The notes beneath the pieces are model-generated. The model saw only the letters and a list, made by a program, of their open reading frames with translations, searched no databases and was not told the origin of the DNA. A stretch of DNA of 411 bases from Escherichia coli (GTDB lineage Bacteria > Pseudomonadota > Gammaproteobacteria > Enterobacterales > Enterobacteriaceae), in NCBI RefSeq assembly GCF_003334335.1, contig NZ_QOWQ01000194.1, one strand, 5' to 3'. A program made the position numbers and the translations under genes. This document shows, piece after piece, positions 99-411 of the stretch; position 1 is the first letter of the stretch; each line of letters begins with the position of its first letter.

Positions 99-133
99 GG
101 ACGCACTAAATTATTTTCAGCAATCCCTCAGCC

Positions 134-256
134 TACGAAAATTCTGCATCCCCTGAATGTTTAATTTACACTCTTTTTATGCAATTATTCTTTCGACTAT
201 AAAAACACCACTATCTCATGTATGACCTTGGGGAGCGTGCCGTCTCCCCGTTTTTT
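134..256 (+). ncRNA. Candidate small RNA, copy A (5' end not determined; 3' end at the intrinsic terminator)
   Basis: Inference: a non-coding region ending in a strong intrinsic terminator, with a duplicated paralogous unit downstream and a 13-nt block (134-146) perfectly conserved between copies. No convincing sigma70 -35/-10 pair was found; TATAAA at 198-203 and TAAATT at 107-112 are weak candidates, so the start coordinate is a placeholder. I could not match the sequence to any sRNA I can recall (Spot42, CyaR, McaS, OmrA/B, RyhB, RprA, MicF and others were compared from memory). Confidence 0.3.
230..256 (+). terminator. Rho-independent (intrinsic) terminator: 6-bp GC-rich stem, 8-nt loop, 6-T tract
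   Basis: Seen in sequence: GGGGAG 230-235 pairs with CTCCCC 244-249 (five G:C pairs and one A:T); loop cgtgccgt 236-243; g250 then tttttt 251-256. The - strand has no T-tract after the hairpin (it is followed by aaggtcat), so the terminator is oriented for + strand transcription. Confidence 0.6.
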
Positions 257-304
257 CGCTTACAGTTTCATGACGACTTTCAGTTTCAGGAATCAGCAGT
301 TACC

Positions 305-331
305 ATGCAATACGAAAATTCTGTATTGCAT
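305..331. repeat. Perfect 9-bp-arm palindrome ATGCAATAC-N9-GTATTGCAT, present in unit B only
   Basis: Seen in sequence: 305-313 atgcaatac and 323-331 gtattgcat are exact reverse complements; spacer 314-322 is gaaaattct. It overlaps the unit-B copy of the conserved 13-mer (311-323). The equivalent left arm in unit A (cagcctac, 129-136) does not pair with gcatcc. It could be a dimeric-regulator operator or a 5' stem-loop of RNA B. Confidence 0.6.
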
Positions 332-411
332 CCGCGCCCTCATCTCAATATCTTTGTCGCCGGATAAAAATAACTATCAACCACAAGTATCATGCTCTCG
401 GGGAGCACGCA
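311..411 (+). ncRNA. Candidate small RNA, copy B (paralog of copy A; 3' end lies beyond the window)
   Basis: Inference from the tandem duplication: the conserved 13-mer is at 311-323, the conserved A-rich block at 362-370, and the start of a terminator-like 5' stem arm GGGGAG is at 400-405 (ggggagcacgca, cut by the window end). The matching CTCCCC arm and T-tract would lie just past position 411. Confidence 0.25.

Follow-up and report, generated by a model that had tools for sequence, protein, structure and literature searches.

The question raised by this locus is what a cluster of short direct repeats is doing in the spacer between two tandem units of an Escherichia coli prophage. The first-pass annotation of the window (the whole 411-nt stretch of DNA that was analysed) had placed these repeats where the promoter of the second unit should be, and had offered two readings of them, as remnants of a duplication junction or as promoter elements. 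The window is part of the tfa–eib intergenic region of P-Eib-type E. coli prophages. This region is 807 bp long and lies between two genes of the opposite strand, a DUF4376 tail-fibre-assembly gene (tfa) and the YadA-like eib, which serves serum resistance and adhesion in LEE-negative STEC and ECOR strains. The window was matched in 27 of 5,426 complete E. coli genomes (0.5%), at 1–5 places per genome and always on the chromosome, with the best genome matches reaching 99.8% identity, and a search of a plasmid collection with it gave no match. The eib-proximal, middle and tfa-proximal parts of the intergenic region occur together in the same 27 genomes. Eib phages also carry the window sequence, including P-EibA of ECOR-9 and the PhiR5 and PhiR12 phages.

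On the plus strand, antisense to the late and adhesin genes on either side, two units of ~120 nt follow each other head to tail, separated by the spacer:

134–256, plus strand: unit A, with the 13-mer TACGAAAATTCTG at 134–146, an AU-rich body, a terminator stem at 229–250 and a T-run at 251–256
257–310, plus strand: inter-unit spacer, found as two main alleles and one recombinant, and absent from fused-unit variants
311–411, plus strand: unit B, with the 13-mer at 311–323, a body and a terminator stem from 400 that is cut by the window end

Both units open with the same 16-mer, TACGAAAATTCTGYAT (134–149 and 311–326), and the 16-mer and the terminators repeat at a distance of 170–177 nt. A profile of the unit matched unit A at 134–257 with E = 3e-33 and unit B with E = 4e-26. 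The global alignment of A with B scores ~6 sd above shuffles, which argues that the units are an old duplication and bears out the earlier statement that the repeats lie in a spacer between homologous tandem units. The units have otherwise diverged, and it is the 13-mer and the terminator that are best preserved between them. In longer loci the unit B terminator is complete, with its stem reaching 417 and the T-run ending at ~425 (L001 8400–8417, then T6). Terminators of the kind looked for in the sibling-sRNA class are thus present at 229–256 and 400–~425, with T6 tails and on the plus strand only. Apart from these terminators, the folded unit RNAs are AU-rich with no significant structure, and in unit A the terminator hairpin is the only robust element. 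The 13-mer, identical in the two units, is unpaired in the unit A fold and lies inside a 9–10 bp palindrome in unit B. From this anatomy we infer that the units would be transcribed as sRNAs.

A terminator scan of the intergenic region found none on the gene strand. On the plus strand, the stretch corresponding to window positions 229–~553 (L001 8229–8553) carries three canonical intrinsic terminators and a fourth, weaker one within ~320 nt. The last plus-strand terminator abuts the tfa stop codon, and a diverged eib-like cassette (L081) keeps a terminator there without the units.

Rfam gave no meaningful match at E up to 1 on the window or up to 10 on the surrounding 2.2 kb, and a literature search for the unit motif returned only an unrelated rice paper. 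A profile built from units A1, A2 and B revealed no third unit beside tfa and no copies elsewhere in the phage. A unit signature (13-mer, 70–100 nt, GGGGAGC) was scanned across 100,044 species-representative genomes and gave only four chance matches in unrelated taxa, and thus no evidence of the unit outside E. coli prophages. A viral scan with the 16-mer returned mostly single chance matches; BLAST confirmed 10 real loci, each of which is nearly the same as one of the two known alleles or as the form with a single fused unit. When the 61.5-kb phage and the 16-kb locus were searched for complementary targets of the 13-mer or 16-mer, none was found beyond the shuffled-genome level or the unit's own antisense. 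We know of no convincing match of the 13-mer to invertase crossover sites, to the Lrp, IHF, ArgR or Cra consensus, or to core sRNA seeds.

Coding explanations of the units were considered and rejected. A coding remnant, such as an inverted tfa cassette, was tried by blastx of the intergenic region against the neighbouring proteins, with a best E of 0.58. The short ORFs (22 and 24 aa in unit A; 20 and 49 aa over unit B) were rejected by inspection because they have no Shine–Dalgarno sequence, their frames differ between alleles and they are not common to both units. The unit A ORF (window 157–225 and its allele 2 equivalent) ends at the same stop in both alleles; its product has 22 aa in allele 1, MFNLHSFYAIILSTIKTPLSHV, and 24 aa in allele 2, MIVLFALFLCSHSVAYKKAPLSHV, with a hydrophobic N-terminus. 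The frames differ over most of their length and the start codon is lost in P-EibA. This short ORF is probably not a gene.

Within and around the spacer, the following features bear on the repeats:

115–125, plus strand: unit A block TTTCAGCAATC, 10/11 identical to 284–294 and 8 nt closer to its own 13-mer
259–276 and 277–294, plus strand: imperfect 18-bp tandem duplication, 13/18 identical by direct reading
265–294, plus strand: weak hairpin, in which 269–277 pairs with 283–290 and the outer pairs are 265–267/292–294
279–284 and 301–306, plus strand: TTCAGT, a 16-nt spacer and TACCAT, the best, weak sigma-70-like candidate for unit B, with a predicted start at ~313
284–294, plus strand: unit B block TTTCAGGAATC, read directly
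305–313 and 323–331: perfect 9-bp palindrome with arms ATGCAATAC and GTATTGCAT, enclosing the unit B 13-mer, with its left arm at the right edge of the spacer

The positions given for the repeats proved accurate: CAGTTTCA (cagtttca) stands at 263–270 and 281–288, and the tandem tttcag, TTTCAGTTTCAG, at 278–289. The duplication at 259–294 includes both octamers as well as the tandem hexamer, and the octamers sit within a longer 13/15 direct repeat (259–273 versus 277–291, spacing 18). To gauge chance, the window was shuffled 500 times with its dinucleotide composition preserved: 15% of the shuffles contained an exact 8-mer repeat within 30 nt, 8% a tandem hexamer and 2.4% a 13/15 match within 30 nt. 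The spacer repeats are real but only marginally beyond chance, as comparable features appear in 2–15% of shuffles. The suggestion that they are a duplication remnant fits what was found, and they are best read as the leftover of a local duplication, the imperfect 18-bp tandem.

The same annotation had described a conserved block, TTTCAGSAATC, shared by the two units at 284–294 and 114–124. The first coordinate pair holds; the second reads TTTTCAGCAAT and is off by one, the true site being 115–125. A 10/11 match at an offset of 160–185 nt is found in 5.6% of shuffles, and local alignment of the region upstream of A (60–133) with the spacer (258–310) recovers the 11-nt block only, with p ~0.03. 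The block was further said to occupy the same relative position in both units, about 17–20 bp before the 13-mer. This is not the case, since it starts 19 nt before the 13-mer in A (115/134) and 27 nt before it in B (284/311), and a promoter element common to A and B should stand at an equal distance. With the 13-mers aligned without a shift, the upstream regions agree at 10 of 44 positions, which is the chance level. The caveat that the block does not resemble a sigma-70 −10 hexamer was correct. Among orthologues, whose sequences differ very little, the A copy hardly varies outside one fused-unit locus (L080), and the B copy reads TTCAGTTGCCGGAATC in allele 2, retaining only TTCAG and GGAATC. 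On the reading that we favour, TTTCAGSAATC is a patch of residual duplication homology and not a shared −10 element.

If the repeats were promoter elements of unit B, sigma-70, another sigma factor or an activator would read TTTCAG or CAGTTTCA, and the block would be common to unit A. The case for this begins with the strong terminator directly upstream of the spacer in allele 1, the allele of the window, which means that independent transcription of unit B must start within 257–310. A consensus sigma-70 scan found no site there. The sole plus-strand consensus site in the window is a weak TAGTCA-17-AATAAT at 11–39, no more than shuffles give. In a position-weight scan the top site was TTGAAT-18-TAAATT (83–112), whose score of 11.1 equals the mean best site of shuffles (11.1, sd 1.7), and nowhere in the intergenic region does a sigma-70-like site outscore the best one from shuffles. 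The consensus sigma-70 promoter has TTGACA at −35, a 17-bp spacer and TATAAT at −10. Like it, TTCAGT-16-TACCAT has the critical A2 and T6 of the −10 hexamer and the correct distance to the 13-mer; unlike it, the candidate matches at only 3/6 and 4/6 positions, below the scan threshold, and its score of 7.1 falls short of the shuffle best-site mean of 11.1 (sd 1.7). Should unit B be independently transcribed, this weak site would nevertheless be the only promoter candidate in the 54 nt.

Both hexamers of the candidate are retained in both alleles, and its −35 falls inside the second repeat copy. Since TTCAGT and TACCAT are conserved and would place the start at the 13-mer, a weak but real promoter that uses part of the repeat may exist here. 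Unit A has nothing equivalent to TTCAGT-16-TACCAT and no −10-like hexamer at the corresponding position. Scans for sigma-E, sigma-32, sigma-28 and sigma-54 sites near 134 and 311, of the kind proposed along with the promoter reading, gave best matches at 6–10 of 11–16 positions, which 68%–99% of shuffles equal, so that these alternative sigma factors stay at or below the shuffle level. The promoter reading thus has in its favour the upstream terminator, the retained hexamers with a start at the 13-mer and the block match, and against it the chance-level sigma scans and the 8-nt offset, which leaves no promoter geometry common to the units. The natural variation described below adds that the octamers are not conserved in allele 2 and that the spacer is deleted in some phages. 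On this balance we regard it as unlikely.

Two further observations concern promoter-like sequences outside the spacer. An 11-bp unit, ATGACCATTGA (76–97), is present in two copies in the window, in one copy in most related loci and in three in L062. The second copy creates TTGAAT(83)-18-TAAATT(107), and a single copy leaves only CTGATG-17-TAAATT; the copy number could be a switch for unit A expression, or just slippage. On the minus strand, which is the eib strand, 7–34 holds a promoter-like TTGACT(34–29)-16-TAACTT(12–7) that overlaps the plus-strand TAGTCA-17-AATAAT (11–39). Its predicted start is at about window position 0, which would give an eib leader of ~254 nt with the stem-loop annotated in AF151091.

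Natural variation of the spacer was examined in 37 two-unit-spacer loci, recovered with flank-anchored patterns from genomes, phages, viral contigs and metagenomes. Allele 1, which contains CAGTTTCATGACGACTTTCAGTTTCAGGAATC, is found in 27 of the 37 loci. Allele 2, which contains CAGATGCCGGGCAACATTCAGTTGCCGGAATC, is found in nine (five, plus four of a one-base subvariant), and the remaining locus, L051, is a recombinant with its left half from allele 2 and its right half from allele 1. In allele 2 the octamers read cagatgcc and cagttgcc at the same 18-nt spacing, and the two repeat copies differ between alleles by the same pair of substitutions, T to G and A to C. By a rough estimate such parallel changes would have a probability of ~2% if independent, which hints at concerted evolution rather than pure neutrality, whether by gene conversion or because a hairpin or a paired binding site is under selection. 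The spacer is part of a mosaic segment (~150–290) that differs strongly between the two haplotypes, with nearly identical flanks. Allele 2 also differs in terminator A (L003 2701–2823, corresponding to window 134–257), where the 5′ arm is mutated and shortened and a 4-bp stem is left; in allele 2 phages unit A would probably read through into unit B.

Five further loci carry a single fused unit: P-EibA (L004 3123–3300), L015, L016, L032 and L080. Here positions 1–84 of unit A are joined out of register to positions 21–125 of unit B at a 3-nt microhomology (ATC), and the fusion deletes terminator A, the whole spacer and the 13-mer of B. The diverged cassette L081 has neither unit. Conservation of the repeats in orthologues, which would be expected of promoter elements, is therefore not what is found, as the octamers differ in allele 2 and natural single-unit variants delete the spacer. 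For the same two reasons we infer that the octamer has no sequence-specific role. Diversity is very low, with essentially two haplotypes, and arguments from conservation are accordingly weak. The parallel substitutions, together with a hairpin register that is kept between alleles, leave some room for an RNA hairpin or a paired protein site.

The hairpin follows from the duplication itself, whose core is partly self-complementary, so that its halves also pair into a small hairpin. As a functional feature, the hairpin at 265–294 in the plus-strand RNA would be a 5′ stabiliser or processing signal of the unit B RNA, and transcription would have to cover the spacer, either by running through terminator A or by starting at about 260–273. 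In allele 1 its folding energy is −6.2 kcal/mol (z −0.7; also −4.6, z −0.3), no better than shuffles, and in the recombinant L051 it is weakened to −4.5 kcal/mol. In allele 2 it is stable, at −13.4 kcal/mol (z −2.9), and the decayed terminator A of that allele would allow read-through. The G–U pairs of the window allele favour the plus strand, with −6.2 against −3.7 kcal/mol on the minus strand. The two alleles pair in the same register, with a shifted bulge; 93% of cells pair in this register versus 11–46% when it is slid, with one compensatory GC/UA pair among four haplotypes. The shuffle control for this pairing is not significant (247/500), being uninformative with only four haplotypes, and the fused variants do without the hairpin altogether. 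A functional hairpin is for these reasons a distinctly improbable explanation of the repeats.

The palindrome at 305–331 is a stronger feature than the spacer repeats. As RNA it folds at −10.2 kcal/mol (z −4.8), and inverted repeats that are perfect over 9 bp turn up in only 2.3% of shuffles. The palindrome (ATGCAATAC-N9-GTATTGCAT) is missing from unit A, and in L028-type copies it has a G307T change without a compensating partner. Lying over the candidate start site, it could serve as an operator; were transcription to begin further upstream, it would act in the RNA as a hairpin with GAAAAUUCU in its loop. A second inverted repeat, of 13 bp (ATCAAATTGTGCT/AGCACAATCTGAT) with a 14-nt loop (z −3.7), lies at 38–77, ahead of unit A, and shows no variation across the loci. 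PhiR5_2, a phage that carries the eib cassette, also encodes IbrA and IbrB (L083 23883–25696), which are annotated as co-activators of prophage eib expression and are candidate regulators for the intergenic palindromes and repeats.

These features bear on the idea that the repeat copies are tandem binding sites for a phage or host regulator, with allele-specific specificity, that controls unit B or, at long range, eib. The parallel base changes in both copies between alleles would be expected of such sites, significant operator-like palindromes lie nearby at 305–331 and 38–77, and the genes for the eib co-activators IbrA and IbrB are on the same phage. Against this, a spacing of 18 bp does not make a whole number of helical turns, L051 combines a copy of one type with a copy of the other, some natural variants have lost the spacer and no candidate protein emerged. 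The EibG preprint describes an eibG clone with only 168 bp of upstream DNA, a stretch that stops short of the window, which restored the phenotype. This suggests, though only weakly given that transcription may have come from the pGEM vector, that eib expression does not require the window. Paired binding sites are thus very unlikely, more so than any other reading considered here.

A different possibility is that the whole tandem array is non-functional, decaying DNA in a moron intergenic region, with terminators that merely insulate the late operon from stray antisense transcription. No convincing plus-strand promoter, no Rfam family and no complementary phage target beyond the unit's own antisense were found, all of which would agree with decay. 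Terminator A has decayed in allele 2, out-of-register fusions are tolerated, and L081 has kept the plus-strand terminator next to tfa without any units. However, the presence of three canonical terminators on the plus strand inside 320 nt points to genuine transcription of that strand, and the 13-mer and the terminator being best kept between diverged units is the pattern of sibling sRNAs. We consider wholesale decay about as improbable as a functional hairpin.

The sibling-sRNA pattern invites comparison with OmrA/B, which have OmpR sites, and with PrrF1/2, which have Fur boxes. OmrA/OmrB of E. coli and PrrF1/PrrF2 of Pseudomonas are named as tandem duplicates (bioRxiv 10.64898/2026.05.13.724894). 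Like them, the eib-locus units are adjacent, on the same strand and each ended by a Rho-independent terminator with a U-tail; conservation is concentrated in the 5′ block and the terminator, on either side of a diverged middle, and the second promoter has to fit into a short spacer. Unlike them, they have no recognisable regulated promoter and no Rfam match, are predicted from sequence and belong to a prophage found in only 0.5% of complete E. coli genomes.

Two groups of prophage sRNAs are closer in setting. AsxR and AgvB are prophage anti-sRNAs at the PR′ moron site of lambdoid EHEC prophages (Tree et al. 2014, PMC4104026). The eib units would resemble them as small terminator-ended RNA genes beside a moron virulence gene of a lambdoid prophage, antisense to late transcription, and as related groups with one conserved and one variable part. 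AsxR and AgvB are 51–60 nt long and lie downstream of Q/PR′ beside stx in convergent pairs, with a conserved 3′ and a variable 5′ part (PMC4104026), whereas the eib units are ~120 nt long, lie between tfa and eib, are in tandem and have their conserved 13-mer at the 5′ end. The two are set apart by description, and the sole evidence against their relatedness is the missing Rfam match. The Pas sRNAs (PasA–D) are found in EPEC and EHEC prophages as scattered copies, separated by at least 22 kb and expressly described as not tandem, and the main text of the preprint mentions no Eib, YadA or tail-fibre context (bioRxiv 10.64898/2026.05.13.724894). Like PasA–D, the eib units are prophage-borne, restricted to pathogen lineages and variable in copy number, with variants that have a conserved putative seed and terminator. 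STnc100, a structural relative of the Pas sRNAs, gave no match in the Rfam scan of the eib locus. Locus, context and arrangement differ between the eib units and PasA–D, and here too the separation is by description.

To explain the repeats, we favour, at roughly even confidence, a local duplication in the spacer with incidental self-complementarity, an octamer without evident sequence-specific constraint and a spacer that is dispensable in nature. The spacer at 257–310 separates two plus-strand, terminator-ended units resembling sibling small-RNA genes, and the short repeats would be the two halves of an old, imperfect 18-bp tandem duplication, an allele-specific leftover whose self-complementarity is incidental. 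The repeats would then be functionally neutral. What the analysis directly shows is the layout of the locus, its alleles and deletion variant, and the absence of any consensus promoter. A more far-reaching version, which we hold to be possible but doubtful, is that the units are a new prophage sibling sRNA pair with the 5′ seed UACGAAAAUUCUG, carried with the cassette of the immunoglobulin-binding adhesin eib and transcribed antisense to the late operon. The spacer repeat or hairpin and the 27-bp palindrome would in that case provide allele-specific control, unit B being expressed independently in one allele and by read-through in the other.

Taken by themselves, the repeats are ordinary and matter little: they define no promoter, and natural phages manage without them. 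The unannotated, sRNA-like pair immediately upstream of eib is the more notable candidate and a modest lead. If the units are expressed, they would be an addition to the moron-associated prophage sRNAs, and they would come with ready-made genetic controls in the spacer alleles, the decayed terminator A, the fused unit and the one, two or three copies of the 11-bp unit.
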